A stretch of 64,000 nt of DNA from Candidatus Nomurabacteria bacterium (GTDB taxonomy: Bacteria; Patescibacteriota; Minisyncoccia; Phycocordibacterales; UBA918): contig JACKGE010000001.1 in assembly GCA_020632155.1 (NCBI GenBank), forward strand, positions 92,011-156,010, given 5' to 3'. Of the stretch, positions 34,673 to 50,734 are shown in pieces. Each line of letters starts with the position of its first letter. The first letter of the stretch is position 1. The notes under the pieces were generated by a model. The model did no database searches and had not been told where the DNA came from. It saw only the letters and a list, made by a program, of their open reading frames with translations. The translations under genes were made by a program, and so were the position numbers.

Positions 34673-34702
34673 AAAAGTCCGAGCACTGCTCGGACTTTTT
34701 TA
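34671..34702. terminator. bidirectional terminator AAAAAAGTCCGAGC-ACT-GCTCGGACTTTTTT
   Basis: perfect 9-bp stem, A6/T6 flanks. Confidence 0.7.
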
Positions 34703-34913
34703 TAGTAGTGTCAGCCTTATTTCTTTTTAGCGGCCTTCTTCACTGCCTTCTTGGCAACTTTTTTCTTTTTGTCCATGATCGTTTGCATAGCTAGTAATGC
34801 ATGATCACCTGTAGTGTGGGGAAGTTACTCCTTGGCCCAAGGGCGCTTCATGTACCAAAATTATACAAGCAAGTTTCAAACTCCAGATACAAGCAGGTGT
34901 GAATACCACAACC

Positions 34914-35897
34914 CTACTTCAACATATCTGCTTTGGTAGCAGAATCGAATACCCCAGTTTCTGTAAGGTCATTCTCTGTTTGGTATTCACGCAGGGCAGC
35001 GGTAGTAATAGAGCCATAGTACCCAGTGGCACCTGCGGCTTGTAGCTGTGCGTGTGCTGGTCCATCACTACGCAGTAGTAAGTACGTTTGAAGGAGTGAA
35101 ACGGCGGTACCTTGATCACCAACAGTAAGTCCCGTTGGAAGCGCTGTCGGGATGCTGTCAATAAGTTTGTTCAGCGTCTCTAGGAGCTTGGCTTCAGTCA
35201 CCACGCCGGCGTCCTCAAGTGCCTCGGTGAATTCATCCGGCAGATCGTAACCGGCCTGCAGCGCTGCTTTAAAGTCAGCAGGGAAGTTCTCAACGAGGAG
35301 TTCTGTGTACGTATCTTTATCATCAACTCCGTCAAGAATGCCTTCGAGGAAAGATACTTTTTCTTTTAAGGTAAACGTGTCTGTCAAACGAGGATAGGGA
35401 TCAAGCGCCTCTCCATCTCTAATTTCAAAGTGCAAATGGTAGGCAATGCCTTTGGCGTTACCAGTATCTCCAACCGTACCGATGAAGTCGCCTACATCAA
35501 GAACGTCTCCCTCATCCAACTCTTCATTAATGGCATCAAGGTGCATGTAGACAAATTGTTCACCCCCCGGATTGGCAGTGCGGACATAGAGACCGGAACT
35601 TACACCGTCGCCGATTCGCAGTACCACTGCCTCTGTCGGTGAGACAATTGGTGTGCCTTGTGGTGCGACAAGGTCTTGGCCTTCATGTGTACGTGTACCA
35701 TCACCACGTGGATCACCAAAATCTGGTGTCACCGTATCGATATCGACTCCAAATAACACTGGTACAGGAAGGTCCTCAACAATATCATCGTCAAGTCTCT
35801 CGACCTTACTGCTATATGAATTGTAGCTACTGCGGGCTTCAGCCACCGGAACAGCTGTAATGAAGACGAGGCTGGCCAAGAATAAAGCTCTATACAT
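34914..35897 (-). CDS. secreted M23 family metallopeptidase with C-terminal peptidoglycan-binding domain
   Basis: signal peptide; HEGQDLVAPQGTPIV...GDTGNAKGIAYHLHFEIR; PG_binding_1-like C-terminus. Confidence 0.8.
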   Translation of the reverse strand: MYRALFLASLVFITAVPVAEARSSYNSYSSKVERLDDDIVEDLPVPVLFGVDIDTVTPDFGDPRGDGTRTHEGQDLVAPQGTPIVSPTEAVVLRIGDGVSSGLYVRTANPGGEQFVYMHLDAINEELDEGDVLDVGDFIGTVGDTGNAKGIAYHLHFEIRDGEALDPYPRLTDTFTLKEKVSFLEGILDGVDDKDTYTELLVENFPADFKAALQAGYDLPDEFTEALEDAGVVTEAKLLETLNKLIDSIPTALPTGLTVGDQGTAVSLLQTYLLLRSDGPAHAQLQAAGATGYYGSITTAALREYQTENDLTETGVFDSATKADMLK

Positions 35898-35984
35898 AGG
35901 CACAAACAAAATTACATGTATTACTTACTAGTGTTGACGAGTTGGCCTCGCCCTCCTTACCTTTACAATTTATTGTATTGCTAC

Positions 35985-36045
35985 TCTAGTGTAAACGACT
36001 TTTTTCCAAAACTACGGCCGTTTATCTGTAGCTCGAGAATATGCT
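35985..36045 (-). pseudogene. orphan duplicate of the 3' end of the AlkC-like gene (encodes ...HILELQINGRSFGKKSFTLE*)
   Basis: about 85% identical to 36512..36580 (…HVLELQINGRSFGKKIFLLK*). Confidence 0.5.
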
Positions 36046-36134
36046 TCCTATAGTACCTAGCGCTTTTAATAACTTTACTTATAGCCTCAGTAGTGTTGTC
36101 ATGACTCTTAAAACGCTAGGAGGCAGAGTAATAG

Positions 36135-36162
36135 AAAACCTCCGGCTGAAGCAAGAGGTTTT
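36135..36162. terminator. hairpin AAAACCTC-loop-GAGGTTTT
   Basis: 8-bp stem with A/T flanks. Confidence 0.45.
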
Positions 36163-36185
36163 GGGTATAAAAGTCCCGAAATAAA

Positions 36186-36422
36186 CTAACGACCAATCGG
36201 ATCGATGGCTTCTCTTGGAAAATACTCGTTCGGATGGTTCTCAAGCGTGTAACCATAACCAGGGTGCTCACTCAATACTATAGTTTCTTCCCCAGTGGAT
36301 TTAATACGCACCATACGACCAGCCGGAATCGGTAGTGGTTGAATGGGGTTACCCTTACGGTGCCAGCTTATCTGACTTCTTTTATCCAAGGTGCGGCGAT
36401 GCTTTTCACGGATTGACGGCAT
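36186..36422 (-). CDS. hypothetical small protein (78 aa)
   Basis: SD GGGAG upstream of ATG. Confidence 0.5.
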   Translation of the reverse strand: MPSIREKHRRTLDKRSQISWHRKGNPIQPLPIPAGRMVRIKSTGEETIVLSEHPGYGYTLENHPNEYFPREAIDPIGR

Positions 36423-36511
36423 GGTTGCTCTCCCTTTCCTGCTACGAGCGTAGCATAAACGTGATTTGATTGAAATACTAGTTTTTATCTAACCTAAAAA
36501 CCATCACATTT

Positions 36512-37654
36512 TTACTTTAGTAAAAAAATTTTTTTTCCAAAACTGCGACCGTTTATCTGTAGTTCAAGAACATGTTTTCCAGGGTATAGCGTGCGAGTAC
36601 TCATAAGCCTGAGAGTATGATTCTTCTCAAGGTGCACGGATTCATTTGGTCTCAGTACCAACTTGCTGAGTTTATAGGTTTTTGGCGCCAGTTTGCCGCT
36701 AGCCTTATTAAAATGAATGATGTAATCGGCCATGACATTTTGTTCTTTGTGACTGGTCGAAGTGAGTGTAAACGAAAATGGAACTGACTCACCCACCCGA
36801 ATGCTCTTACTCCCAAGCGTAAAAGCAGATACCCTGAGATGACCAGTATCAAACCCAATCAGTCGAAGCGCGTCGCTGTCTCCTGCGCGCACCAAGCTAC
36901 GCAGTGCATGGTTGGTGAGGTACGAGAGCTCCCGCGCACTTTGTCGTTTTTCTTTATTCCATTTGCGTAGGAGCCTAAGGGCCAGTGACTTATCTACCTT
37001 AGTGACATCATTAAGATGATTAGCAACTGAGCGCACCACGTACCGCGTTCGGTCAGCATGTAATCTGTCCAGTATCGGTGCTAGTTTTTTTGGTGGCACG
37101 GTAATTTTCTTTGCCCACGGTAGATTCGGGCGCGTACCTTCACTTGCAAGCCTGCGGACATGATAGTTTGTATCTTTTGACCATTTCTCTACCGCCTCCA
37201 GTGTCTCTTTAGGAAAAGCGTTTAAAAAATCGCGAAGCGCTCCCTCAGCTGAGAAGCGTTTGGTAAGTTCACGCAATGCTGCCAGCGAACGCGCAACATG
37301 TTTTTCGGTACACCCGTAGGTGGCAACAAAGTACGAATACGGGGCGTAAATAAAGTCACCAAAGTCATTATCAGTTTTGCCTTCATCAAGTACTGGTGGC
37401 TGCGCAGCAAGAATAATGGGGAGTGCATCAGAATATGCACTTGGTAAAAACTCTCGCAACCGGTCGCGAATACCCCGAACCCGTTCCATGAGTTCTTGCT
37501 CGGGAAAATCCTTGAGAACTGCCTTTATAAAGGCTTTGGTAGCAAACTCGGGATAGACCGCTTCAATTTCTTTAGCCAACTGTTCTACCTTGCGCCGATT
37601 AAAGAGTTCGTCCTTAAGTGAAAATTGCTTTTCAGTCTGACGGTGTTTTTTCAT
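36512..37654 (-). CDS. DNA alkylation repair protein, AlkC/AlkD-like HEAT-like-repeat glycosylase with C-terminal Ig-like domain
   Basis: 380 aa; HVRRLASEGTRPNLPWAKK helical-repeat region; beta-rich C-terminal about 100 aa. Confidence 0.55.
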   Translation of the reverse strand: MKKHRQTEKQFSLKDELFNRRKVEQLAKEIEAVYPEFATKAFIKAVLKDFPEQELMERVRGIRDRLREFLPSAYSDALPIILAAQPPVLDEGKTDNDFGDFIYAPYSYFVATYGCTEKHVARSLAALRELTKRFSAEGALRDFLNAFPKETLEAVEKWSKDTNYHVRRLASEGTRPNLPWAKKITVPPKKLAPILDRLHADRTRYVVRSVANHLNDVTKVDKSLALRLLRKWNKEKRQSARELSYLTNHALRSLVRAGDSDALRLIGFDTGHLRVSAFTLGSKSIRVGESVPFSFTLTSTSHKEQNVMADYIIHFNKASGKLAPKTYKLSKLVLRPNESVHLEKNHTLRLMSTRTLYPGKHVLELQINGRSFGKKIFLLK

Positions 37655-37754
37655 GCGTGGCTACTATTGTCTAGTGTTCGTGAAATAATGCAAGACCACA
37701 AAAACAAAAACCCTCCGGTCTGACCGGTGGGTTTTGTGTTAGACGCTCCGCTTT

Positions 37755-38171
37755 TTAGCCCCAATTGCCGAGGATATACCCAAACAGCATGAAGATGACA
37801 AACTGGTAGCCAGCCTGAACAACAAAGCGAAGCCAGCGCATTTTGCTCGATTCAGCTGTCCAGATGGCGCTGCCAGCCAAGGTCGGCATGACCATACCGA
37901 GCCAGAGCCAAAACGCCACCTCAACCCCCGATACGATATCCCAACCTTTGATAAAGTGGGCGAGAACGTACAGTTGGAGCAGTAGCACCGCGGCCTGAAG
38001 CAGGTAGTCTTTCCACATGCGCTTTTGCATGGCTTCTTTCTCTGTCTCACTTAGACTATCAGCGCCAATAATCCGCATCCACAAACGACCAAACAGAGCG
38101 CCGTACCAAATGGCTCCTACAACCATCGCCAATACGGCACAAATAATGATAGGAAGGTAATGTATTTCCAT
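37755..38171 (-). CDS. DUF1761-like small membrane protein
   Basis: start at internal Met MEIHYLPIIICAVLAMVVGAIWYG... Confidence 0.5.
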   Translation of the reverse strand: MEIHYLPIIICAVLAMVVGAIWYGALFGRLWMRIIGADSLSETEKEAMQKRMWKDYLLQAAVLLLQLYVLAHFIKGWDIVSGVEVAFWLWLGMVMPTLAGSAIWTAESSKMRWLRFVVQAGYQFVIFMLFGYILGNWG

Positions 38172-38172
38172 A

Positions 38173-38811
38173 TTACTGAACTTGTAGGTCGTAACCACCA
38201 TTAAATTGTGCGCCCATATTTTGCATCATGGTCTCCATATCCATGAAGTCAATATCAGCCGGTGGCACAAATTTACCTTGATCAACGCTCCAGATCTTGC
38301 AGTCATACCGCACGTCTTGATCTGGTGTCATTTGCCGTGCCGGCACACTGTCACCTCCAGCTGGAGTTGCTTCGTAGGTGCTGTCATCTGTCTTCATTTT
38401 TAGTGCAAAGGTTCCTTCTGCGGACTCTGACCACGTATACGAGTATTCACCATCTTGTATCATGTGCGATTCCATGACCGTGCCAGCCTGTTCCATCTCA
38501 AAGTCACCGCGCAAACGCTCGCCTGAGATATAAACCGTGCCGGCTACTGCACCGCCTGTCTCGTCGGCAACAGAGGAGAACTCACAGGTAAGATTTTTAC
38601 CGAGACCCATTAAGCTCATAAACGAGCCGAAACCTGATAGAGGTACATTGTCTTTAGTGTCAGCAGTTTGTTGACTGGCAGATGATTCAGCTTCCATACT
38701 GTCAGCGTCAGTACTCGGAGCAGACGCTGGTGCGGCCGGCCGCAGCCAGATGTAGCCTACAAGACCTACTACAATCACGCCCACAAGAAGGGCGGTTAGT
38801 TTAGTATTCAT
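38173..38811 (-). CDS. hypothetical N-terminally anchored secreted protein
   Basis: TM MNTKLTALLVGVIVVGLVGYIWL then Ala/Pro/Ser linker and globular domain. Confidence 0.55.
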   Translation of the reverse strand: MNTKLTALLVGVIVVGLVGYIWLRPAAPASAPSTDADSMEAESSASQQTADTKDNVPLSGFGSFMSLMGLGKNLTCEFSSVADETGGAVAGTVYISGERLRGDFEMEQAGTVMESHMIQDGEYSYTWSESAEGTFALKMKTDDSTYEATPAGGDSVPARQMTPDQDVRYDCKIWSVDQGKFVPPADIDFMDMETMMQNMGAQFNGGYDLQVQ

Positions 38812-38895
38812 AACCCTAGATCACTATGTATAATAAGTTCATTATACTCCCTTCCGTTTATGAGACCAGATGACGGACCGTGAGACGACGAAAAT

Positions 38896-39924
38896 ATGAA
38901 GTTCTGCATTACTATTCTCCTTTGTTTTCTAATAACATCAGTTGCCTATGGCGCGAGCGATAACGCCGGTTTTGTGGAAGGTCTGTGGTTTTCAAATGAA
39001 GTAATCATTGTCGGTGAGCCGGTGCGTATCTACGTAGCTGTTCGCAACAATACCGGCAGTGACCTCTCCGGTACGGTGGAATTTTTTGTGAACGATAAAC
39101 CTATTAGTAAAAACGAGGTTGGGGCGCTCACCGGACGCATTATCGAGACATGGGCCGACTGGACACCAACCGCTGGTACCAGTACCGTTCGCGCCGTACT
39201 CTCCGGTACACAGCTAGAGCCAGTTGGTAGCTCCTCACAACCAATCACGCTCTCCCTCACTGAATCGACGCGCACTATCTTTGCTGATATCGATACCGAC
39301 AACGATGGTATTCCAAATCAAACCGACACCGATGACGATGGTGACGGAGTGAGTGATAGCGATGAACTTGAAAACGGCACTGACCCACTTACCTACGACG
39401 AACCCGAGACAGCGACTGCAGCCAACGAAGACGAAAATGAAGTCGCTAAGACCAACACACTCACCCAAAACACATCGGGAGGTGATAGGCCAGAAGGCTT
39501 AGAGCAGTACCTAAGTGACAATCGTGCTCACAGCGCTTTTGCCGGCGTTACCGAGGTTATTAATACCACCAAGAAACAACTCGATGAGTATCGCAGTGAG
39601 CGAAGCGCCGCCTTAGAGCAGACTAATACTGAAAATGACGTAGGTGAACAAACAACTGCCACCAATACCCTTGCCAGTGAGGGTTTTGGCGCTGGTGGTT
39701 TTGGAACCATCACCCGTAGCACAACAAGTGACGCAGGTGAGAACAGTTTCTTTGCTGGACTCTTGTCACTGATCTCACACCTCTTTCATACCCTTGTCAC
39801 CTTTATACTCTTTGTTATCTCAACCATCCTTGGCCACCCCGCCTTGGTACAAGTTGGACTACTTCTCCTGATTCTCTTCACCACCTATCGCCTCGCCAAA
39901 AAGTTCGGCTCACGGAAGCAATAA
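38896..39924 (+). CDS. cell-surface protein: signal peptide, beta-sandwich domain, Ca-binding DxDxDG repeats, acidic linker, C-terminal TM anchor
   Basis: DTDNDGIPNQTDTDDDGDGVSDSDE repeats; C-terminal hydrophobic helix + KKFGSRKQ. Confidence 0.6.
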   Translation: MKFCITILLCFLITSVAYGASDNAGFVEGLWFSNEVIIVGEPVRIYVAVRNNTGSDLSGTVEFFVNDKPISKNEVGALTGRIIETWADWTPTAGTSTVRAVLSGTQLEPVGSSSQPITLSLTESTRTIFADIDTDNDGIPNQTDTDDDGDGVSDSDELENGTDPLTYDEPETATAANEDENEVAKTNTLTQNTSGGDRPEGLEQYLSDNRAHSAFAGVTEVINTTKKQLDEYRSERSAALEQTNTENDVGEQTTATNTLASEGFGAGGFGTITRSTTSDAGENSFFAGLLSLISHLFHTLVTFILFVISTILGHPALVQVGLLLLILFTTYRLAKKFGSRKQ

Positions 39925-39969
39925 AATAACTAGTGTTGCATTGAAAACCAATCCCAGTATCATACCGAT

Positions 39970-40542
39970 ATGCTATTTGGAATTGCGGGACCAACTGCCA
40001 GCGGCAAGACAACCGTGACTGATGTCCTTACTGGTGAGTACGGCGCTGCCTATATGCGCTACTCCTTGATTCTCTCCGATATCGCTACCGAGCGTGGTCT
40101 TGATCCAACCGACAAAGCAACGCTTCAAGACCTCTACGTTACCCTGCGCGAAACGCGCGGCGAAGACTGGCTGGCTAAAGAGGTACTGCAGCGAGCGCGA
40201 AACATCGACTCACAGAACATCGTCATCGAAGGCAACCGTCGTAAGGTCGACCTTGAAACCTTGAAGGCGGTGGCGAGTACGCGGGGTGAACAGCTCCTAC
40301 TCATATTTATAGATGCCTCACCAGAGACTCGCTTCGTTCGCTACAACTCTCGCCTTCTGAAACAAGGTAAACCGCGAATTGACTGGGAGGCCTTTTTGAA
40401 ATTAGAGCAGAATCCTGCCGAAGATGAGGTGCCCTTCCTGCGTGACTTTGCGAAACAACATGGGGTGTACATTGATACTGACGAATACGGTATTGAGGAA
40501 GTACAGAATCTACTGAGACAAAAAGTTGAGAAAATTTGTTGA
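39970..40542 (+). CDS. P-loop nucleoside/nucleotide kinase-like protein (dephospho-CoA kinase/adenylate kinase superfamily)
   Basis: GIAGPTASGKTTV Walker A at N-terminus; about 190 aa. Confidence 0.5.
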   Translation: MLFGIAGPTASGKTTVTDVLTGEYGAAYMRYSLILSDIATERGLDPTDKATLQDLYVTLRETRGEDWLAKEVLQRARNIDSQNIVIEGNRRKVDLETLKAVASTRGEQLLLIFIDASPETRFVRYNSRLLKQGKPRIDWEAFLKLEQNPAEDEVPFLRDFAKQHGVYIDTDEYGIEEVQNLLRQKVEKIC

Positions 40543-40618
40543 TTTTCAGACGCAGTTGCAAAAATGACTAAGTAGGAGTAAAAAGGACTATCGTCCAAAC
40601 TATTGAGAGGAAGATGCG

Positions 40619-41035
40619 ATGAGATATTTATCCGTTCTTGTGGTCGCCGGCGTAGCGTTCATCTCTAATTCTCCGAGTTTTGCGCAGGAACCAAACCAAT
40701 CGAAAGCACCGCAATTTGGCGAGTATGGGTATCGTCACCGTGACCTACACGAGCGGGGAACCATCCAGCAGCTGATGGATGTGACAGGCAAAAGCTGCTG
40801 TGATGGAGGCGATGGCGGAGAGTGCCGAGTCACGGACATCATCTGGGCCAATGGGGCGACTTTCTTCAATCACAACGGTCTTCTCTGTCCCTTCTCAATC
40901 CCAGTCAACTCGGTTAATCTCCCGCTTGGCGCCCGAGCCGTGGTTTGCGCGTCAAAAGAGCTCCATCAGGACGAGGACGGTCCTAAGGGCTGTCCGGTCG
41001 GCATCTACTGCGCCGGAGCAAGCGGCGGTTCATGA
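40619..41035 (+). CDS. secreted Cys-rich small protein (8 Cys)
   Basis: signal peptide MRYLSVLVVAGVAFISNSPSFA; higher GC. Confidence 0.55.
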   Translation: MRYLSVLVVAGVAFISNSPSFAQEPNQSKAPQFGEYGYRHRDLHERGTIQQLMDVTGKSCCDGGDGGECRVTDIIWANGATFFNHNGLLCPFSIPVNSVNLPLGARAVVCASKELHQDEDGPKGCPVGIYCAGASGGS

Positions 41036-41042
41036 AACAATA

Positions 41043-41078
41043 GGCCCCAGCGCGCGTCGTGCGCCGGGGTTTTCTTTT
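41043..41078 (+). terminator. GC hairpin + T-run (CCCCAGCGCGC-GTCG-TGCGCCGGGGTTTTCTTTTG)
   Basis: stem with one mismatch, T-rich tail. Confidence 0.55.
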
Positions 41079-41120
41079 GTCTCAAAATAAATGAGTCCAG
41101 TATTTAGAGAATATGACTCA

Positions 41121-41395
41121 AAATTAAAACGGCAGATTTACTGCCGCCGGACATGTCCTAGGTGATTAAGCTGGGTTACTGGACCGACACCCAGACCGCA
41201 CTTCCGTGACGCAGGCGACCAGCGCCTGGAGGCCCTGAAACGCGTGGTGCTCAGACTAGCTGTAAGTGGCCAATCTTCACAAAAATTCTGATTGTTAGGT
41301 GGTTCTCTTGCGAGAACGCTTCGTCGGTCCAGCAGTGCGCAGCTTAGCACTTACTGGAATAGTAGCGTGTATGAGAAAAAGCGCAAGAGTCGTAT
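41121..41395 (-). ncRNA. candidate RT-associated structured non-coding RNA (3' of RT, same strand)
   Basis: bounded by hairpin straddling RT stop and hairpin+U-run terminator (41130-41146); 10-bp inverted repeat CTGGACCGAC/GTCGGTCCAG, GCAA-loop hairpin GTTCTCGCAAGAGAAC, palindrome GGACATGTCC; no convincing ORF. Confidence 0.3.
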
Positions 41396-42133
41396 TCACT
41401 CCCGCGCTTTTTTATTCAACCGGCGCACCTGTTTTCGCCAAGCCCGGATGGACCATCTCTGGTCAGCATCGTACCCAGAGCTGTACAGCTTTTGCATGGT
41501 CTTCGTTTTTGGATCGATGCGCGTGCCGCGTATTTCGTACCCTAAAACCTCAAGCGGCTCTTCCAAGGTATTGACCCGTTTGGTCTTGCTGTCGTTAAGC
41601 ACGAAACCATATCGTCCAACAACCCTTCTTACGCTCGGACCTACACGCTTACCAATACGCTTGTCCGAAGAAAGCAGTACGTCATCCACATATCGCGTGC
41701 AGTGCAGACCCGCTGCTTCACAGTACTGTCCGAGCTCAAAGTCTAAGCCGCCAAAGCGGCAATAGATCTCAAACAGATACGGTGACGCAGGCGCACCTTG
41801 GATCAAGCCACCTTCACCCTGTTCGTGGAAGAAGTGGTCACGCGGCTCCAGCAACCTGAGGTCAATCCCAAGGCCATCTACAACTGCATGGAGTCGTTCG
41901 TACGTAACATAGTCGAACGCACTTTTGAGGTCAGTCTTGAAATAGTAGTGGTGTCCTCGCCGTGTGTGTCCGATAATGTCCAGGCCTGGGTCGTGATATT
42001 CGATAGGGCCGGCGTCTTTCAGGAACAGCGTGTGTACATCTCGAACGGCAGTGTTTGGACTGTACGCAACTCTACCGCCATCTAACGTTAATCTTTTAAA
42101 CCCCGGAGGGGTCAGATGCCTAATTTTGGCCAT
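41396..42133 (-). CDS. compact reverse transcriptase (RVT_1 only, 245 aa)
   Basis: RT motifs FKTDLKSAFDYV, QGAPASPYLFEIY, RYVDDVLL (YxDD), LNDSKTK, LGYEI; SD GGGAG-7-ATG. Confidence 0.8.
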   Translation of the reverse strand: MAKIRHLTPPGFKRLTLDGGRVAYSPNTAVRDVHTLFLKDAGPIEYHDPGLDIIGHTRRGHHYYFKTDLKSAFDYVTYERLHAVVDGLGIDLRLLEPRDHFFHEQGEGGLIQGAPASPYLFEIYCRFGGLDFELGQYCEAAGLHCTRYVDDVLLSSDKRIGKRVGPSVRRVVGRYGFVLNDSKTKRVNTLEEPLEVLGYEIRGTRIDPKTKTMQKLYSSGYDADQRWSIRAWRKQVRRLNKKARE

Positions 42134-42233
42134 TCCCTTTCTCCCAGAGTTTGGAACTAATTTAGCCTACTATACTAATTTATTAATCCTTTACAAGTAA
42201 CGAAGCGGTAACGCGCCGAGGTTTTCTTTTTTG

Positions 42234-42503
42234 CTATCGTCTGCGGTATAGATGAGCGAGAAAAATAAGAATGGACAGAGGAATGATACTTAGTGCCATG
42301 GTAAACAAAAGTTGAGGTTGTTTATGCAAGTAAGCATTCAAAAAAATATTAACTTGCAGGAACAACGATCCCCACAACATTAACAACGATACTGCGTTAG
42401 CCTCTTTGAGCTTTATAATACGAATGATCTGTGGCAGGAAAATAGCTGGTGTGATGAAACTGGCAAACACTACAACCCAATCTGAAAGTGAGATTATGTC
42501 CAT
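42234..42503 (-). CDS. small 2-3 TM membrane protein (89 aa) immediately upstream of RT
   Basis: hydrophobic helices, C-terminal RRR. Confidence 0.5.
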   Translation of the reverse strand: MDIISLSDWVVVFASFITPAIFLPQIIRIIKLKEANAVSLLMLWGSLFLQVNIFLNAYLHKQPQLLFTMALSIIPLSILIFLAHLYRRR

Positions 42504-42573
42504 ACAATCATTTTATCAGGTTCTTTTATAGTTCATCGGAATAATCCTCGGCAACTTGTCTACAGTAGCTGAC

Positions 42574-43452
42574 CTACAAACCTTTGAGGCTCAATAACAA
42601 AATTCCTGTAGTTACGATAATAAGTCCAAGGGTATTTTTGAATGTAACTTTTTCTTTTAGGAAAGTTACTCCTAAAATAAATACAAAAATAGGAGTTACC
42701 GCAGTGAGAGGAGAAGCTACTGACGCCGGAAGTATTTCAAATGCTAGCCAAAGCATCAACACTGCTAATGTGCTAAGTAAACCTGAAAGAAAGGCATATT
42801 TATGTTCAGCAAAGCGAGAGAAAAATGTTTTTAATTGACGCAGACTTTGTTTTTGCATCCTCAGGAATACGATCCCAACAGGTACTTCCGCTATAGCTAG
42901 AGCAATGAGAAATGTTCCTGCAGATGTCTGGTCAATTATGTGTTTTCCTGCAACATCAGAAATTGAGACAGCAACCGCAGCCACTAATGGCCACACAATG
43001 AGGTGAAATTGCCAGTGTGCAATCCTATCTTTTACCCACTCACGTTTTGACGGAGAACTTACTATAAGAACTCCAACGACAACCAACCCGAGCGCAATCC
43101 ATGCCCAAAATAAAAGTCTTTCTTGCAAAAATAAATATGCAAAAAATATTGTAAATATTGGGTATGTAGAAAAAAGTACACCTGTAATGATGGTGTCACC
43201 ACGAGCAGTAGCGAAGAATACGAAAGCTTCTGACAAGATAGCGCTCAGTATGGCAATCGGTAGCACATATAGAACATCGCTCCATACTCCATTGGTAAAC
43301 ATTGCAAAAGGTATCCATATCAGGACACCTGTTAAAGCATTCATCATGAAAGCCATGCTTTCAGAAAAATCTTGTAGACTGCGTCGCATAAAAATATACG
43401 ACAATGCCTGAAGCAATGCTGTTAGTAGACCAAAAATGATACCAATCGACAT
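42574..43452 (-). CDS. EamA/DMT family transporter
   Basis: 292 aa, 10 TM, duplicated EamA halves. Confidence 0.8.
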   Translation of the reverse strand: MSIGIIFGLLTALLQALSYIFMRRSLQDFSESMAFMMNALTGVLIWIPFAMFTNGVWSDVLYVLPIAILSAILSEAFVFFATARGDTIITGVLFSTYPIFTIFFAYLFLQERLLFWAWIALGLVVVGVLIVSSPSKREWVKDRIAHWQFHLIVWPLVAAVAVSISDVAGKHIIDQTSAGTFLIALAIAEVPVGIVFLRMQKQSLRQLKTFFSRFAEHKYAFLSGLLSTLAVLMLWLAFEILPASVASPLTAVTPIFVFILGVTFLKEKVTFKNTLGLIIVTTGILLLSLKGL

Positions 43453-43518
43453 GTTTCATAGTATAACAAACTTGCTATTTCAGATAATCTGAATGACAAC
43501 TACTAGAACAGTGATCAT

Positions 43519-43560
43519 ACAAAACAAAACTGCTCCCAATTGGGAGCAGTTTTGTTTTTT
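43519..43560. terminator. bidirectional terminator AAAACAAAACTGCTCCC-AATT-GGGAGCAGTTTTGTTTT downstream of rpsG
   Basis: perfect 17-bp stem. Confidence 0.7.
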
Positions 43561-43680
43561 GAGAAATTTCAGAATTGGATGCTGCGCGAGGCGCTAGCGA
43601 AAAATTATTCGAGTGGGGCAAGTGCCCAGTGAGAATAATTTTTCGCGCGGCAACAAAGCGCCGCGCCGATTCTGGGATTT

Positions 43681-44154
43681 CTACCAGGCGAAGTGGGCAA
43701 AGGCCCTGTTAGCCTCAGCCATCTTATGCGTATCCTCCTTCTTCTTCACGGCATCACCTTCGTTCTTAGCAGCAAGCATAAGCTCGTTTGCTAGTGCTTT
43801 ATGCATTGGGATGCCCTTTTGCTTGCGGGCAGCAGCAATGATCCAGCGCAGGGCCAAAGCAGTGCGGCGCTCTGGACGCACCTCACGCGGCACCTGATAG
43901 TTGGCGCCACCGACGCGACGGCTACGCACCTCCATCATTGGACCGGCGTTTTGGAGCGCCGTGTTGAATATCTCAACCGGCTCACCCCCGCCCTCCTTGG
44001 CGTTCTTAATGATATCGAAAGCAGCATACACGATCTTGCGTGCTGTCTCCTTTTGACCACGAAGCATGATGTAGTTGATAAGGCGCTCAACAGCAACCTC
44101 ACCGAACTTGATGTCAGGCGTGACTATGGGTCGTTTTTTTATTGGTCGTCTCAT
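43681..44154 (-). CDS. rpsG: 30S ribosomal protein S7
   Basis: MRRPIKKRPIVTPDIKFGEVAVERLINYIMLRGQK... Confidence 0.93.
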   Translation of the reverse strand: MRRPIKKRPIVTPDIKFGEVAVERLINYIMLRGQKETARKIVYAAFDIIKNAKEGGGEPVEIFNTALQNAGPMMEVRSRRVGGANYQVPREVRPERRTALALRWIIAAARKQKGIPMHKALANELMLAAKNEGDAVKKKEDTHKMAEANRAFAHFAW

Positions 44155-44399
44155 GACTTTAGTTATTAGTTATGAGCGAAAAAATGAGAAGTATGACACA
44201 TCATATTTTCATTCTTCGCATAATGGTCACTCTTTCGAGTACCAATCGGTATCTGTAGCGAATATAAACTATTAAGTTACTCGTTTTAAATCAGGTGGAA
44301 ATTGTTTTGTAGCGCGGCGCACAAGGAATGTGGCGCGAGCTTTATTTGGCAATAAAGTGAGTGTCACATTACCGCCGTGCAACAAAGCTACAGAACGAT

Positions 44400-44813
44400 T
44401 TACTCTGATTTAGGGCGCTTAGCGCCGTAGCGACTACGTCCCCGACGTCGCGCATCTACACCCGCTGAGTCGTACTTACCTCGTACGACGGTGTAGTTGA
44501 CACCGATGTCTTTAACACGACCGCCACGTACCAATACCACAGAGTGCTCCTGCAAGTTGTGTCCCTCACCAGGGATGTAGGCAGTGATCTCCTGACCGTT
44601 AGTAAGACGAACACGGGCGATCTTTCGAATCGCAGAGTTCGGCTTACGCGGCGTCTTGGTGGTCACACGCGTACAGACCCCACGCTTGAATGGTGAGTTG
44701 TAGCTGTTTGGACGGTTCTTGATCTTGTCAAAACCCGACTGCAGAGCAGCTGTTTTGGTCTTGGTCGCAGTGTCGCGACGCTTACGCTTGGTTAATTGAT
44801 TGATTGTTGCCAT
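44400..44813 (-). CDS. rpsL: 30S ribosomal protein S12
   Basis: [13 protein letters not shown]...[48 protein letters not shown]; internal Met of ORF starting 44858. Confidence 0.95.
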
Positions 44814-44858
44814 AAATAGCCCGCCTACTCTACTACATACAGCCATTTTTGCAACCAA

Positions 44859-45048
44859 AACAAAAGCCCGGCAAGACGCGGGCAGTAAGGACGGGAGGAT
44901 GGCGGGGGCACGCCATCCTCCCTATTTCGCTCACCAGCCGACTGGACGCTGTTGAGCGGGTGGAGACGCGACCTTCGAGGGAAGGGCGGTTTCAAGGCTA
45001 CGCCTCCTATCACGGCTGGGTCGGCCGAGATTCACTAACACAAACCTA
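44859..45048 (-). promoter_or_regulatory. structured rpsL 5' leader: 12-bp GC hairpin (GGGAGGATGGCG/CGCCATCCTCCC) followed by terminator-like hairpin + U-run about 40 nt before AUG
   Basis: GCCCG-CGTCTTG-CCGGGC + TTTTGTTTTGG also serves as terminator for the M50 protease gene. Confidence 0.4.
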
Positions 45049-45687
45049 CTATAATCCGCGAAGACCTGTCAAGAGCTCAAAGACCGAGAATACCAACTGC
45101 GAGAATGGCGCCCAGAAGAGGTGGATGAAGATAAAAATAAAGGCAAAGGTGACAAAAAGACCGTACCGCTCAACCCACATGGTAAGTTCACGATACTTCT
45201 GGGCAGCACCAAACGGTAGCAAAGCGACAATGATTTTTGAGCCATCAAGCGGCGGAATCGGGATGAGGTTAAAAAAGGCCAAGAGGATATTGATATACAC
45301 AATGTAGGTAGCAATATCAAAAAAGGCTGCTGGTAGGCCGAGCGGCACCGCAAACCGTATCATCATTCCAAAAATAAAGGCGATTAGTAAATTTACCGCT
45401 GGGCCGGCAGCAGCCACCTTAGCCTCACCGTACTTTTGATCAGAGAGATTGTACGGGTTATACGGGACCGGCTTAGCCCAACCAAAGAGAATGCCGGCGC
45501 TTGAGACAAACAACAAGAGTGGGATGATGACCGAACCAAGCGGATCGATATGGACAAGTGGGTTAGCCGACAAGCGACCTTGGAGGCGCGCCGTCGGGTC
45601 GCCAAGCCAGTTGGCCATATATCCATGGGCCATTTCATGCAGAACAATTGATAGTATGAGGGCAGTGAGTATAAACAGTGATTCCAT
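45049..45687 (-). CDS. site-2 protease family (M50) membrane metalloprotease
   Basis: HEMAHGYMA HExxH in TM helix, 212 aa polytopic. Confidence 0.75.
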   Translation of the reverse strand: MESLFILTALILSIVLHEMAHGYMANWLGDPTARLQGRLSANPLVHIDPLGSVIIPLLLFVSSAGILFGWAKPVPYNPYNLSDQKYGEAKVAAAGPAVNLLIAFIFGMMIRFAVPLGLPAAFFDIATYIVYINILLAFFNLIPIPPLDGSKIIVALLPFGAAQKYRELTMWVERYGLFVTFAFIFIFIHLFWAPFSQLVFSVFELLTGLRGL

Positions 45688-45763
45688 AGCCCTCCATGGT
45701 ACGCGGCTTTGCTTGCATATTCAAGGCTTTGTGGTAGGATGTCGCCACTAAATATCTATTGAT

Positions 45764-46006
45764 ATGGCAAAGCAATGTGACATCACCGGCAAAAAGACCC
45801 AGATTGGGGGCCGCTACTCTAACCGCACGCGTGCGACGCAGTTTAACCCGTGTGGCAAGACTCGCCGCCAGCCAAACCTGCAGAAGCGACGTATCTATGT
45901 ACCAGAACTTGGCAAGCACGTGATTGTGAACGTTTCTACTAAAGGCCTTCGCACTATCGCCAAGAACGGTGCCTACAAAACCCTCAAGGCAGCCAAGCTT
46001 ATCTAA
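45764..46006 (+). CDS. rpmB: 50S ribosomal protein L28
   Basis: MAKQCDITGKKTQIGGRYSNRTRATQFNPCGKTRRQPNLQKRRIYVPELGK. Confidence 0.88.
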   Translation: MAKQCDITGKKTQIGGRYSNRTRATQFNPCGKTRRQPNLQKRRIYVPELGKHVIVNVSTKGLRTIAKNGAYKTLKAAKLI

Positions 46007-46017
46007 GCTAGGTAGAC

Positions 46018-46052
46018 ACAAAAAGGCCAGTGCGTAGCGCTGGCCTTTTTGT
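46018..46052. terminator. terminator after rpmB (AAAAAGGCCAG-TGCGTAGCG-CTGGCCTTTTT)
   Basis: 6-9-bp stem, A5/T5 flanks. Confidence 0.65.
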
Positions 46053-46087
46053 GTATTCTTGTTTTGCCAGTGAATTACACGCAAACG

Positions 46088-46131
46088 CAGACCTATTAAT
46101 ACTGCGATTAATCGCAGTATTAATAGGTCTG
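46088..46131. repeat. perfect 44-bp palindrome CAGACCTATTAATACTGCGATTAATCGCAGTATTAATAGGTCTG
   Basis: self-reverse-complementary over all 44 nt; between rpmB and comEC C-terminal gene. Confidence 0.8.
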
Positions 46132-46132
46132 A

Positions 46133-47029
46133 TTATTCTAACTGGAGTGTAGTGCCATCACTCACAAAAATAATAGTCCCTTCCTCAGCTGTACTTAGTA
46201 CTTGCACCCGCTTATTAAAGAGTAGATCGGTCACTTCCATATGTGGGTGTCCATAAGAATTATCTTTGCCGGCTGAGATGATAGCGTACGTTGGCATGAC
46301 CTCATCAAGGAATAATTCCGAGGTCGAGGTGCGTGAACCATGGTGACCGACCTTAAGTACATCACTCTTAAGGTGTTCCCCTTCTGTTAAAACCAAATAC
46401 TCCTCGATACTTTTGGGAGAGTCTCCGGTAAGTAAAAATGATGTTTCACCGTAAGTAAGCTGCGCTACAATCGAGGCGGTATTACTTTCCGCCTCTGACA
46501 TATCACGGTCTGGAAAAAGTATCTCCACTGATGCGCCACCGCCAAGGTCAATTACCTGCCCGCGGCGAGCGTAGGTGACCTTGCTCCCCTCAGCTGCTAT
46601 TGCCTCGCTGACCGTCTGCCAGACCGGTGTATCACTCTCGTTTTCGGTGCGGATAACCGCGCTCACGTCGTACTGCTTGAACACCTCCGGAAAGCCGCCA
46701 ACATGGTCGGCGTCCGGATGTGTTAACAGTGCGTAGTCAAGTGCTCTATCTTTGCGATCCATAACGGCCGAAAGTTCGCGCAGTACTTGGCTATCGCGAC
46801 CACTATCAATGAGCATCTGTCCACCAGCCGGCGACTGGATAAAAATTGAATCTCCCTGTCCCACGTCTAAGAACGCCACACACAGTTGCTCACTGGGGCA
46901 ACGCGGAGCACTCACTACTTGCCCCAATAAGGTATCCGGATCGAGTCCAAGCTCCGGTAGCCAAACCGTAAGTAATCCCACCAGAAGCGCCCCTATAACA
47001 GCCAAGCGTTTTTGCACGAGTGCGTCCAT
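46133..47029 (-). CDS. ComEC C-terminal metallo-beta-lactamase domain protein (separate gene, N-terminal anchor)
   Basis: DVGQGDSIFIQSP...LLTHPDADHVGG...VGHHGSRTSTS...YGHPH. Confidence 0.75.
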   Translation of the reverse strand: MDALVQKRLAVIGALLVGLLTVWLPELGLDPDTLLGQVVSAPRCPSEQLCVAFLDVGQGDSIFIQSPAGGQMLIDSGRDSQVLRELSAVMDRKDRALDYALLTHPDADHVGGFPEVFKQYDVSAVIRTENESDTPVWQTVSEAIAAEGSKVTYARRGQVIDLGGGASVEILFPDRDMSEAESNTASIVAQLTYGETSFLLTGDSPKSIEEYLVLTEGEHLKSDVLKVGHHGSRTSTSELFLDEVMPTYAIISAGKDNSYGHPHMEVTDLLFNKRVQVLSTAEEGTIIFVSDGTTLQLE

Positions 47030-47082
47030 ACTTTCGTTTCATGATACAATCCGAAGACCTTATTGGCTAACCGACAGTAACT

Positions 47083-47643
47083 ATGCAATACGAAGCAAAG
47101 ACCTTTACCATTCCGGCACTTGATGGCATTTCCCAGCAGTCAATTGATGAGCATCTCAAGCTATACGCCGGTTATGTTAAACACGTAAACCACATTCGCG
47201 AAGAACTGAAAGACGTAAACGATCCCTATGCGCGCTCAGAGATGCAGCGCCGTCTTGGGTTTGAGTTTGGTGGTATGAAAAACCATGAGTACTACTTCGC
47301 GCAGTTTGAAGGGGGCGCAACAGCGGTGCCTGATGGTGATTTTAAAAGTATGGTCGAGGCAGAGTGGAGCTCAATGGAAGCATTTGTTGAGCACATGAAA
47401 GAGGTAGCAGCAACCCGAGGCGTCGGTTGGGCCATGTGTTACATCGACCGCGCTGAGAAAAAACTGGTCACCGCCTGGATCGATGAACAACACCTTGGCC
47501 AATTAGCCGACCTCGATATCGTTCTCGGTATCGACATGTGGGAGCACTCATACATGCTTGATTACCCGCCAAGTGAGAAGAAGGCCTACATTGACGCAGT
47601 CTTCAAAAACCTGAACTGGGAAGTGGTAGCGAACCGCGTCTAA
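47083..47643 (+). CDS. sodA: Fe/Mn superoxide dismutase
   Basis: 186 aa; DMWEHSYM and metal ligands. Confidence 0.92.
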   Translation: MQYEAKTFTIPALDGISQQSIDEHLKLYAGYVKHVNHIREELKDVNDPYARSEMQRRLGFEFGGMKNHEYYFAQFEGGATAVPDGDFKSMVEAEWSSMEAFVEHMKEVAATRGVGWAMCYIDRAEKKLVTAWIDEQHLGQLADLDIVLGIDMWEHSYMLDYPPSEKKAYIDAVFKNLNWEVVANRV

Positions 47644-47661
47644 GCCTAAGAAAATAATATG

Positions 47662-47692
47662 AGCCCGCCGGAATGCTGTGCCGGCGGGCTTT
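47662..47692 (+). terminator. hairpin AGCCCGCCGG-AATGCTGTG-CCGGCGGGCT after sodA
   Basis: 10-bp GC stem, weak T tail. Confidence 0.5.
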
Positions 47693-47700
47693 GTAGCAAA

Positions 47701-47793
47701 TCATCGGAGCAAAATGATCATAGCCAGTACGATCAACATGACACCAATAGCGATTGCGCGACACACTGGTCGCGAAGAAAGGATTATGTCCAT
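47701..47793 (-). CDS. 30-aa hydrophobic peptide MDIILSSRPVCRAIAIGVMLIVLAMIILLR
   Basis: GGGAGG SD 5 nt before ATG; single TM; too short for ORF track. Confidence 0.3.
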   Translation of the reverse strand: MDIILSSRPVCRAIAIGVMLIVLAMIILLR

Positions 47794-47875
47794 TCTTTCC
47801 TCCCTACGTTTGTATAAATTGTACCGTGCCCTGCTACTCATTCAGCAATACACCAGCAAATAAAATAGTGTCAAC

Positions 47876-49438
47876 TTAGCGAAAAAATATGGGTGTTGCA
47901 GCCAGTGTTTCCGATTGCGGTACACTGGTCTTTGTTTCACTCTGCGCCTCGACCTCTTCAATTGTCCAATAAGCTAACGGATCAAGCGAAGTGCGTTCCA
48001 GTTTGTACCACGCCAGCGCTACCAGCAGATACCCGAGAGGTACCAATACAAACGGAAAAGCTGGTACCACAAAGGCGGCAAAGGATAAGCTGCCAAAATA
48101 CTGAGCCGCCGTGATGATGTACCAGAGCGACAGTTGCGCTGCCAAGCCAAGTACAGCAGCAGCGCTCGGAAACACAAGACCAACAAGCCCCGTACTAAAG
48201 GTGAGTAGCATCGAGAGTGGTACCATCGGCAGCACCAACACATTAACCAAGACCGCCAAGACCGAAAACTGTCCGATCTGGTAGAGCAGCAGTGGTGACA
48301 CGGCAATTTGCGCCGCAATCGTTGCGGTGAGAAAACCGCGCGCACCAAACCAACGTGGTACGGCGCTCAGCCGCTTTTCAATAGCGGGAGCCAAAAGAAT
48401 CAGGCCAAGGGTTGCTAAGAACGAGAGCTGGAAGCCAATATCATAAACTAGCAAGTACGGTTGCCACAACAGCATAAGCACGCCGGCTAGAAAGAGTGCC
48501 CTTGTTACTAGGTACACACGGCCGGTTGCCTGCGCAAGGAGTAAGAGACCGGCCATCAAACTAGCGCGCAGGACAGTAGCGGAAAGTCCTACGATGATAG
48601 CAAAGGCAGCGATAGCAACAAGACCAAATACAACTCTACCGCGCAGTGGCAAAAAGAATGAAAACAAAAACATGATAAACGTCACCACCAACATGACGTT
48701 GTAGCCCGACAGCACCACAATATGAATAATGCCGGTACGGCGAAACATCTCTTCAAGTTCGTCACCGAGCGCCCGCTTCTCGCCGAGGAGTAGCCCTAAT
48801 CCAAGCGCCGCTTCGGGAGCGGGGATGTACCGCTCAATTGAATCCGATAAAAGGTTTTTTACATCATAGAGTCGCGCAATTGATAGCACATTGTCAGTAG
48901 TCGATAGAATTTTCACGTCAGCAAAAGACAGAACCTGAGTGACGCCCCGCGCTTTAAGATAGCCCGCGTAATCAAAGACACGACCAAACTCAGTCTCGAA
49001 GGCTTCCGGCTGTTCTAATTGGCCGGTAGCCGACACACGGTCGCCATAGTGGTACTGCTCGTACGGTTCGGTACGTACCAGTACCAGCGCAGACTCCGTT
49101 TTGACGTAGAGCTGTGTCATGCTCTCGCGTTCGTCCGGTTCACGTGCGACTGTTCCTTCTATGGTGACGGCTCTGCCGCTTTGTGCCTCTAGGGCTGGGG
49201 TACGTAAGTGCTCTGCTTCTGCGTCCGTGCGCAAAAGGCCAATAACGGCACCGAACAAGAAAACCGTTACCAGCAAGAGACTCTGTTCCCGCGAGCGCCG
49301 ATAGACCAGTGCCGCAATAAGAGCCAGCAAAGCCACATATAAGATGGTCGGTAAGCTAACTGGCCAGAGGGTGTAGGTTCCAATACCACAAACAAAACCA
49401 CCAATCGCTGCGTACAGTACTACTGGAGAATGCCTCAT
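47876..49438 (-). CDS. comEC: ComEC/Rec2 competence channel protein (DUF4131 + Competence domain; lacks MBL domain)
   Basis: ...RRTGIIHIVVLSGYNVMLVVTF... polytopic. Confidence 0.8.
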   Translation of the reverse strand: MRHSPVVLYAAIGGFVCGIGTYTLWPVSLPTILYVALLALIAALVYRRSREQSLLLVTVFLFGAVIGLLRTDAEAEHLRTPALEAQSGRAVTIEGTVAREPDERESMTQLYVKTESALVLVRTEPYEQYHYGDRVSATGQLEQPEAFETEFGRVFDYAGYLKARGVTQVLSFADVKILSTTDNVLSIARLYDVKNLLSDSIERYIPAPEAALGLGLLLGEKRALGDELEEMFRRTGIIHIVVLSGYNVMLVVTFIMFLFSFFLPLRGRVVFGLVAIAAFAIIVGLSATVLRASLMAGLLLLAQATGRVYLVTRALFLAGVLMLLWQPYLLVYDIGFQLSFLATLGLILLAPAIEKRLSAVPRWFGARGFLTATIAAQIAVSPLLLYQIGQFSVLAVLVNVLVLPMVPLSMLLTFSTGLVGLVFPSAAAVLGLAAQLSLWYIITAAQYFGSLSFAAFVVPAFPFVLVPLGYLLVALAWYKLERTSLDPLAYWTIEEVEAQSETKTSVPQSETLAATPIFFR

Positions 49439-49820
49439 TAAAAAATTGTAACAAAAATACCGCCTGTAAAAGGCGGCTTGTTCGGGGCCGGCGCGTTAGC
49501 GCCGGCCCGACGTTTCAGTGTATTCGACGTGCCACACCCCACTGGCGCTGACGTGCATACTCGATAGCTGCCGGATCACCTGCCAAAACGCGACGAGCAA
49601 TCTCGGTACGGATGGCACATTTGTCTTTTTTCATCTGCACCACCAAATGGCAACAATGATCAGGCGCCGCGCCGATCTCAACATCGAGACTCAGGTGGCG
49701 CGCGGCCAATGTAGCCGTGTTTTGTTCGTCGACGGACAATGCGTTTCTCCCTCTTTTGTCCAGCCACCAATGGCTAGACTTCAACGGACAAGCCTACCGC
49801 TAGGATTAGAAAAAAGCAAG

Positions 49821-50240
49821 TTACGCGTTATCCATCGCTTCATTAGCCAAACGATCGGCTTCTTTATTTTGCTCGCGGCGCACATGGGTAAGCGTCAAGT
49901 TTGGAAAGTTTGCTACCCGTAAATTATGTATCTCGATAAACAGTGGTACGAGCCCTGGTTCTTTTATCTGGTATTCACCATTTAGTTGTTTTTTTACCAG
50001 TTCACTATCCATGCGCAGTTCAAAAGCCATCTCTTTGGTCTTTTTACCGAAGTGGCTTTTAAGAGTTGAAAGGGCTGTGGCCACGGCTAGGTACTCAGCA
50101 AAATTGTTAGTGGCGTTACCAATGAATTCCGATACTTCTTTGATGACGTCACCTTGCTCATTCACAATCTGAATACCGACACCAGCTGGTCCGGGGTTTC
50201 CACGCGCACCTCCGTCTGTATACGCAATAATTTTTTCCAT
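49821..50240 (-). CDS. rnhA: ribonuclease HI
   Basis: MEKIIAYTDGGARGNPGPAG...NNFAEYLAV...; ORF begins with TTG one codon earlier, ATG at 50238-50240. Confidence 0.9.
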   Translation of the reverse strand: MEKIIAYTDGGARGNPGPAGVGIQIVNEQGDVIKEVSEFIGNATNNFAEYLAVATALSTLKSHFGKKTKEMAFELRMDSELVKKQLNGEYQIKEPGLVPLFIEIHNLRVANFPNLTLTHVRREQNKEADRLANEAMDNA

Positions 50241-50258
50241 CAACTCAATAATAACACA

Positions 50259-50294
50259 CCCCTATATACTCCAGTTAACTGGAGTATATAGGGG
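50259..50294. repeat. perfect 36-bp palindrome CCCCTATATACTCCAGTTAACTGGAGTATATAGGGG (copy 1 of duplicated core)
   Basis: abuts stop of YerC-like gene and lies 18 nt upstream of rnhA ATG. Confidence 0.8.
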
Positions 50295-50722: not shown

Positions 50723-50734
50723 AGCATGTTGTTG

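Follow-up and report, generated by a model that had tools for sequence, protein, structure and literature searches.

A compact retron-type reverse transcriptase and the structured RNA predicted 3′ of its gene: a probable two-component module in Patescibacteria

Retrons such as Ec86 (Eco1), Ec78 (Eco7) and Ec67 (Eco2) pair a reverse transcriptase (RT) of ~300–600 aa with a dedicated non-coding RNA of the same strand, the msr-msd, which lies immediately upstream of the RT gene and is co-transcribed with it. Their RTs are recognized by a NAXXH motif in region X and a VTG triplet in region Y, within RT7 (PMC7736814). Among the defense-associated reverse transcriptases (DRTs), DRT2 (UG2) has no effector protein and comprises an RT and a pseudoknotted RNA alone; the RNA is gripped by the elongated thumb of the enzyme, and its template, like that of telomerase RNA, lies between a stem and a pseudoknot (PMC12039810). 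DRT9 and DRT10 (UG28 and UG17) likewise combine an RT with a dedicated structured RNA, but their RTs reach ~450–500 aa and carry C-terminal priming residues, a serine in the case of DRT10 (PMC12632851). Here we analyze a stretch of 64,000 nucleotides from a Candidatus Nomurabacteria genome (contig JACKGE010000001.1, positions 92,011 to 156,010), referred to below as the window, in which an initial annotation had pointed out a compact stand-alone RT with a structured non-coding region 3′ of its gene and a small membrane partner. We consider it probable that the locus is a two-component module, in which a minimal RT of the retron clade is paired with a dedicated structured RNA, located directly 3′ on the same strand and copied in part into complementary DNA (cDNA).

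The RT gene is an intact open reading frame (ORF), and its 245-aa product, for which the RT motifs had been listed in canonical order, scored 53 bits against Pfam RVT_1 (cut-off 29.6). The NCBI entry for the exact protein, MCA9366565.1 (Candidatus Kaiserbacteria), is annotated as a hypothetical protein. Alignment with 14 homologues revealed that the catalytic residues D68, R147, D150, D151, K183 and G198 were invariant; P9 and G11 of the N-terminal TPPGF and the residues F101-F102-H103 were also invariant and are specific to this family. The catalytic motifs are intact, and the RT is conserved. Motif 4 reads QGAPASP, which is of the QGxxxSP type and not of the type found in diversity-generating retroelements (DGRs), and the protein stops 47 aa past RT7. 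The initial annotation had denied the enzyme a thumb, but the AlphaFold (AF2) model, with a predicted local distance difference test score (pLDDT) of 92.7, shows a short two-helix thumb at residues 210–244. When this model was searched with Foldseek, the best matches were all retron RTs, with template-modelling (TM) scores of 0.68–0.73, and GsI-IIC (TM 0.63) and G2L4 (TM 0.58) formed a second tier. In a profile search of the PDB, the top match was retron Ec86 (65 bits), with Ec67, Ec78 and Ec83 next, while the non-retron scores were 46 bits for Drt2 and 45 bits for group II. The best match among the PADLOC models, which have no listed cut-off, was the retron type III-A RT model (60 bits), and UG17 was the sole DRT model in the top 25 (43 bits). 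Scores against all retron models ranged from 48 to 60 bits, where the curated NCBIfam cut-offs are at least 235 (retron_St85_RT, 48 bits against 235); the group II maturase model TIGR04416 gave 37.5 bits (cut-off 300), Drt2 28 bits (cut-off 390), and Drt3a and Drt5 19 bits or less. Retron RTs were thus the closest relatives by sequence and predicted fold, but none of the curated models of retron, DRT, group II and DGR RTs was matched. These results support the earlier proposal of a compact stand-alone enzyme of the retron type, as opposed to a group II intron or DGR RT.

A word-indexed search of 5.8 billion proteins returned 14 relatives of the RT, nearly all of 230–263 aa, and a profile search of 1.84 billion cluster representatives gave ~45 full-length members at 170 bits or more. 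The next-best matches, at ~130 bits, were proteins of 300–420 aa which themselves match retron models. The family is rare, comprising ~45 clusters, nearly all of 230–265 aa, found in Patescibacteria. One record (L010) is titled Bdellovibrionales and another (L012) Candidatus Moraniibacteriota, yet the two loci are syntenic and their HrcA proteins 92% identical; the assignment to Bdellovibrionales is therefore questionable, and Patescibacteria may be the only hosts of the family. Relatives were absent from the IMG/VR viral contigs and GenBank phages searched, and a phage origin of the RT was rejected on this ground. The full-text literature searched, which did not include a 2026 preprint that applies a genome language model to RNA mining, contained no account of the family.

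In every relative with enough sequence, the RT gene is followed by a gap of ~230–400 nt without a conserved ORF, and in six close relatives this region has evident common sequence. In the window, the 3′ region had a minimum-free-energy (MFE) z-score of −3.7. We built a covariance model (R1) from the six relatives, leaving out the window sequence, and a second one (R2) that included it. R1 retrieved the window at positions 41164..41338 (−) at full length, with an E value of 4e-4 locally, of 0.09 when 100 kb were searched and of 0.21 for 227 kb, and within the 227 kb of fetched loci it matched RT-adjacent sites only. R2 retrieved the RNA of L040, the closest relative by RT sequence, with 23 bits (E 7e-4). 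The predicted RNA is ~175–230 nt long and fills ~230 nt 3′ of the RT gene; it was assigned to the RT strand because of its G-U pairs, its terminators and the low scores of the reverse strand. The earlier statement that the region held no convincing ORF stood in part: it does contain a GTG ORF of 70 aa, but no reading frame is open throughout nine related RNAs, each frame having a stop in at least some of them, and a DRT2-like Neo ORF was rejected for this reason. No relevant Rfam family was found for the RNA, either with the whole window at gathering thresholds or with positions 41000–41450 at E values up to 10. The entire window (1..64000) yielded no tRNA or tmRNA gene with ARAGORN and no RNA family in Rfam at gathering thresholds. 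Taken together, the comparisons point to a structured non-coding RNA, recurrent after RT homologues and cognate to the RT, whose predicted place is 3′ rather than 5′ of the gene.

Covariation was assessed on 45 pairs of an eight-sequence alignment, with 500 shuffles and partner sliding as controls. The nested helices were fitted by the covariance model, which did not contain P6. In the alignment 90.8% of cells were paired, a value that dropped to 34–45% upon partner sliding; 31 of the 45 pairs had changes on both sides, and none of the 500 shuffles reached the observed covariation values. The perfect 10-bp inverted repeat that had been likened to the a1/a2 repeats of retrons, CTGGACCGAC (41323–41332) and GTCGGTCCAG (41179–41188), turned out to form a helix (P1) supported by covariation and lengthened to 12 bp by a G-U and a U-A pair. 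Nine of its 12 pairs changed on both sides, and 97.9% of its cells were paired. The P1 position holds three unrelated sequences, CUGGACCGAC in the window, CCGGUGUGCC in L040 and GGGGGUCUC in the others, and the strand pairs are CCGGUGUGCC/GGCACACCGG in L040 and GGGGGUCUC/GAGACCCCC in the remaining relatives. P1 closes a multi-helix core consisting of P2, which is the hairpin with a GCAA loop noticed earlier, P4, which in relatives reads AUCUGGGC-UACG-GCCUAGGU with loops of the UNCG or GNRA kind, and the variable P5 (9 pairs, 8 compensatory, 77.8% paired). Since the loop of the P6 hairpin contains the 3′ strand of P1, these two helices are predicted to form a pseudoknot; although P6 was outside the model, two of its six pairs changed on both sides. 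The a1/a2 analogy thus holds as far as a closing helix is concerned, but not for its 3′ arm, which is embedded in a second conserved hairpin, nor for a branching G, which is not conserved. Conservation amounted to 1.2–1.5 bits per column in P1, P4, P6 and the single-stranded UUYGUGA motif (1.21 for J2/4), and the GUGA of this motif was invariant in a seven-sequence alignment. J4/5 and P5 were among the least conserved parts (0.5–0.8 bits per column), and P2 was similar (0.78).

Several minor elements of the RNA were considered as well. A P3 hairpin (AGAUC-UUCGUGA-GAUCU) in our first reading was dropped, since the extended P4 pairing was better supported in L038 and the window; group-B RNAs carry a similar GAAUCA-UCG-UGAUUC element, so P3 stays an alternative fold. 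Putative hairpins equivalent to P0, recognized by eye only, were seen in L016, L041 and L038 (AAUGC/GCAUU). Direct repeats flanking P5 (GUCUG in the window, AUCAU in L002) were rejected as marks of template jumping, being too weak and present in some sequences only. The palindrome GGACATGTCC listed by the initial annotation is present at 41149–41158 (−), but it falls outside the conserved core, in a stretch variable among relatives that separates P6 from the terminator; in the MFE fold GGACAUGUCC, at the same position and strand, forms just a 3-bp hairpin. In L040, positions 975..990 contain UGGACCGAC, nine bases of which are identical to the P1 5′ strand of the window (41323..41331). It is located between P5 and P6, where nothing complementary to it occurs, and could be a chance match or a relic of helix turnover.

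RT homologues at 30–35% identity have a longer conserved non-coding region 3′ of the RT; the group-B RNAs, for instance, show 64% mean identity over ~330 nt. The distant RNAs show the same topological hallmark as that of the window, in that the loop of a hairpin just ahead of the terminator is paired with a 5′ segment. Perfect pairing of at least 10 bp between such a segment and a hairpin loop was found in 12 of 23 RT-downstream regions; the corresponding counts were 5 in 230 shuffles and 8 in 225 further genomic segments. RT homologues with as little as ~30% identity are still accompanied by the RNA, the subtype of which tracks RT relatedness, the window and L040 having a common P6 sequence and CACCUA motif. 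Several short Logan contigs with family members (L034–L037, L040 and L041) end 150–320 nt past the RT stop, in or just after the RNA. The ends are inconsistent in position and might reflect low coverage or disturbance of the assembly by extra DNA copies; owing to this inconsistency, no conclusion was drawn as to a cDNA footprint.

In the two-component module that we propose, the RT would bind the conserved core of the RNA, namely the P1/P6 pseudoknot, P4 and the UUYGUGA strand, and would copy a portion of this RNA into a short cDNA. As the template we favor the J4/5–P5 segment, because it is variable and lies between a stem and the pseudoknot, as do the templates of DRT2 and telomerase (PMC12039810). 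The logic would be that of multicopy single-stranded DNA (msDNA) synthesis by retrons and of the DRT2 and telomerase templates, and the output could be phage defense, mediated by the cDNA or directly by the particle, or else a domesticated role outside defense. Several observations weigh against this proposal. The RT falls far short of the cut-off of every curated retron and DRT model. Given the terminator-like hairpin that separates them, the RT gene and the RNA may not be co-transcribed, in contrast to the situation in retrons. Neither R1 nor R2 detects the RNAs of the more distant RT homologues; the homology of these RNAs to that of the window is therefore putative, based on position and topology. 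The window, L040, L016 and L038 have an unpaired G just 3′ of the P1 5′ strand, at the position used for retron priming, but this G is missing in L001, L002, L037 and L042, where P1 abuts P2 via a C, and in L035, which has an A. Because the G is not conserved, retron-style priming is doubtful. Finally, with no effector gene at the locus, no known retron-style output mechanism fits.

Alternatively, the RNA could be functionally linked to the RT without being its template, for example as a scaffold, a regulator or an antitoxin-like RNA, with the RT acting untemplated, protein-primed or on other RNAs (as AbiK, DRT9, DRT7 or G2L4-like enzymes). We hold this to be unlikely. The RNA apparently has its own terminator and possibly its own promoter, the priming G is not conserved, and no conserved stop-free frame or repeat of a DRT2- or DRT10-type template was found. 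Furthermore, the oligomeric state of the DRT9 RT is reported to change through the action of a non-coding RNA (PMC12489045). By contrast, the RT is nearer, by sequence and fold, to the templated retron and group II RTs than to the Abi/UG polymerases, and it is devoid of the extra C-terminal domains that bear the priming residue in AbiK, DRT9 and DRT10. A SLATT partner and an A-B-A′ template signature, looked for in the comparison with DRT9 and DRT10, were not found. A conserved core with a variable hairpin is, moreover, the layout of templates in retrons and DRT2 (PMC12039810).

The locus and DRT2 both consist of an RT and a pseudoknotted RNA only, and the candidate template proposed here occupies a place corresponding to that of DRT2, in one of the least conserved parts of the RNA. 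In DRT2, the RNA template gives rise to a concatemeric ORF that is free of stops and has a reconstituted promoter. The thumb, however, has two helices here and is elongated in DRT2, the Drt2 model is missed by far, and a Neo-type gene is not supported because there is no conserved stop-free frame. We regard the locus as a variant among RT–RNA systems of the retron/DRT kind and see a genuine possibility of something more distinct. In its boldest form the latter proposition would be a hitherto unrecognized class of prokaryotic RT system confined to the candidate phyla radiation (CPR)/Patescibacteria, vertically inherited and effector-less, with a minimal RT of ~245 aa, a 3′ pseudoknotted RNA, initiation of a non-retron type and a resident cellular function, instead of that of a mobile defense cassette, exerted by the particle or by a cDNA templated, as in telomerase and DRT2, by the variable segment between a stem and the pseudoknot; we entertain this tentatively and think it rather improbable.

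A canonical tripartite retron or abortive-infection system, with an msr-msd bounded by a1/a2, a branching-G msDNA and an 89-aa membrane effector encoded upstream of the RT, appears very unlikely, even though retrons are nearest to the RT in both sequence and fold. As in retrons, the RT is paired with a dedicated RNA of the same strand, and a terminal helix of 10–12 bp surrounds conserved 5′ hairpins and a variable 3′ hairpin, in an arrangement resembling msr and msd; the RT also retains the H from the NAXXH motif and the G from VTG. On the other hand, the RT is smaller than retron RTs, region X reads xxxxH (e.g., IIGH or VRRH), with H56 invariant but the N and A missing, and RT7 reads VLG instead of VTG, with G198 invariant. 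The RNA follows the RT gene behind a terminator-like hairpin instead of preceding it, the 3′ arm of its closing helix is embedded in the second conserved hairpin, and the branching G is not conserved, in line with the initial annotation, which had itself noted a mismatch with canonical msr-msd-RT retrons. Retron models were matched at 48–60 bits only, the hosts are CPR bacteria, and the context is of the housekeeping type. No effector gene was found: the 89-aa protein is SemiSWEET-like, aligning over almost its whole length to SemiSWEET transporters of solved structure, and is not found beside any other member of the RT family, so that the partnership initially suggested for it did not hold. 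Its gene adjoins that of an EamA transporter, and the pair appears to make up a small transport unit that has no connection with the RT.

It is scarcely probable that the RNA is an independent housekeeping small RNA of CPR bacteria that happens to lie next to the RT. The surroundings are indeed of the housekeeping type, and terminator-like hairpins stand on both sides of the RNA, but in neighborhoods of many kinds the RT is followed by the RNA or a topological equivalent, the RNA subtype follows RT relatedness (as in the P6 and CACCUA sequences common to the window and L040), and the model matched no other sites in the fetched loci. Least probable of all, and already largely refuted, is a mobile retroelement that has decayed or is fragmentary, be it the remnant of a group II intron or a DGR, whose leftover intron domains or template repeat would make up the 3′ region: the RT is small and stand-alone, shares xLG in motif 7 with group II RTs, has group II and G2L RTs as second-tier structural neighbors, matches the group II maturase model weakly (37.5 bits) and is followed by an RNA with a GNRA loop in P2, but its catalytic residues are invariant and its family conserved at full length, maturase/X and endonuclease domains and intron RNA domains are absent, the 100-nt intergenic region upstream leaves no room for domains I–III, Rfam gave no group II or other family at E values up to 10, motif 4 is not of the DGR type, no template/variable repeat pair or other repeat of the RNA region occurs in the 64-kb window even when A positions are ignored, relatives are lacking in viral contigs and phage genomes, and the locus is syntenic in related genomes, with an RT that has diverged like its core-gene neighbors.

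If the RT and the RNA cooperate as proposed, the locus would represent a new branch of the retron/DRT systems that lacks an effector and has a new RNA fold and an unusual order of genes. Its hosts are bacteria with tiny genomes that retain few dispensable genes. A system of a 245-aa RT and a 200-nt RNA alone would inform the evolution of RT–RNA systems, reverse transcription outside defense in the CPR, and priming without a retron-type G. For developers of retron-style DNA production and prime-editing tools, too, an RT that is minimal by nature and comes with its cognate RNA handle would be of interest.

As for transcription, the promoter-like sequence reported upstream of the RT gene is present (Table 1), but such matches occur in that region at chance frequency (3 found, 2.0 expected). 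A Shine-Dalgarno-like stretch (GGGAG/AAGGG) lies between it and the RT ATG. The hairpin across the RT stop codon and the hairpin with a U-run further downstream were both found as annotated. Terminators equivalent to the former occur in L040, L004, L019 and L029/L030, and the stop-codon hairpin probably separates the RT mRNA from the RNA gene; since a terminator stands between the two in several members, the RNA may have its own promoter. Terminators equivalent to that of the RNA follow P6 in L001, L002, L016, L035, L037, L038, L040 and L042.

Table 1. Features of the RT–RNA locus and its upstream neighbors (window coordinates)
Feature	Position	Strand	Remarks
EamA/DMT transporter, 292 aa	42574..43452	−	Directly upstream of the 89-aa gene
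SemiSWEET-like protein, 89 aa, three helices	42234..42503	−	PQ-loop; residues 4–86 align to PDB 4rng, E 1e-3
Promoter-like TTGTAA-16-TATAGT	42169..42196	−	5′ of RT; consensus scan
RT gene	41396..42133	−	Intact ORF, 245 aa; all motifs quoted in the initial annotation present
RT protein features	41396..42133	−	RT0–RT7 motifs, YVDD, family-specific N-terminal TPPGF and FFHE, two-helix thumb
Hairpin over RT stop codon, 15 bp	41376..41412	−	−25.4 kcal/mol, z −4.7; A-run before, U-run after
Putative RT-associated non-coding RNA	41125..41356	−	Approximate span; covariance-model match 41164..41338
P0 hairpin AGUGC-loop-GCACU	41334..41351	−	5′ of P1; by eye only; last base overlaps extended P1
P1 5′ strand UGCUGGACCGAC	41323..41334	−	Includes the 10-nt repeat arm of the initial annotation
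P2 hairpin GUUCUC-GCAA-GAGAAC	41302..41317	−	Helix 2: 7 pairs, 7/7 compensatory
Single-stranded conserved motif UUUUUGUGA	41277..41285	−	Family consensus UUYGUGA
P4 hairpin AGAUUGGC-loop-GCUAGUCU	41253..41276	−	Helix 4: 8 pairs, 5 compensatory, 96.8% of cells paired
P5 variable hairpin CGCGUUUC...GAAGUGCG	41197..41244	−	Inner CAGGCG/CGCCUG hairpin; candidate template
P6 hairpin CUGGGU...ACCCAG	41171..41194	−	Helices 6 and 7; loop 41177–41188 GUCGGUCCAGUA = P1 3′ strand
Intrinsic terminator of the RNA, GGCGGCAG-loop-CUGCCGUU and U-run	41128..41149	−	

To describe the genomic context, flanking ORFs of 22 distinct loci were clustered, and no family was common to more than 3 of them. The families that recur beside the RT reflect housekeeping synteny (infC-rpmI-rplT, probably 23S rRNA, grpE-hrcA and relA/spoT). 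The RT has no conserved protein partner in these loci. In the syntenic pair L001/L002 the identities were 75% for the RT, 88% for IF3, 76% for L20 and 65% for L35, and in the pair L010/L012 they were 72% for the RT, 66% for GrpE and 92% for HrcA. The GC content of the RT region is 0.50–0.54, that of the surrounding 16 kb 0.39–0.55 and that of the ribosomal genes 0.46–0.55. The locus had been suspected to be an acquired islet of higher GC; there is no such anomaly, the neighbors are housekeeping genes, and the RT has diverged about as much as they have in the syntenic pairs. Because of these neighbors, this divergence and the lack of relatives in viral and phage sequences, the evidence points to a stably resident RT–RNA module and not a typical mobile defense islet, against which the stable housekeeping-type context argues.

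A protein resembling the RNA polymerase alpha C-terminal domain (RpoA-CTD) was rejected as a partner, being found upstream of the RT in L010 and L020 only. The proteins concerned (L010 2066..2848 and L020 75..707) have 210–260 aa and are encoded on the same strand as the RT; the C-terminal domain is their only recognizable part, and they are without the RpoA N-terminal domains. In L010, positions 413..976 gave a strong match to Pfam PF10712 (NAD-GH), which was also seen in the upstream regions of L012 and L023. We take this family to represent ORFs that run antisense to 23S rRNA, in which case the RT of the L010/L012/L023 lineage would have an rRNA operon ~1–2.5 kb upstream. The ORFs apparently common to these three loci adjoin the PF10712 match and are probably spurious, and they were discarded. 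In the window, a 138-aa Cys-rich protein with a signal-peptide-like N-terminus is encoded at 40619..41035 (+), convergent to the RNA; it matched no Pfam, NCBIfam or PHROG family, and its exact sequence was found only in Logan/ENA assemblies, unnamed. Further along, 38896..39924 (+) encodes a secreted or anchored protein of 342 aa with a C-terminal hydrophobic anchor, whose Asp-rich repeats of the DxDxDG type (DTDNDGIPNQTDTDDDGDGVSDSDE) resemble calcium-binding thrombospondin type-3 repeats.

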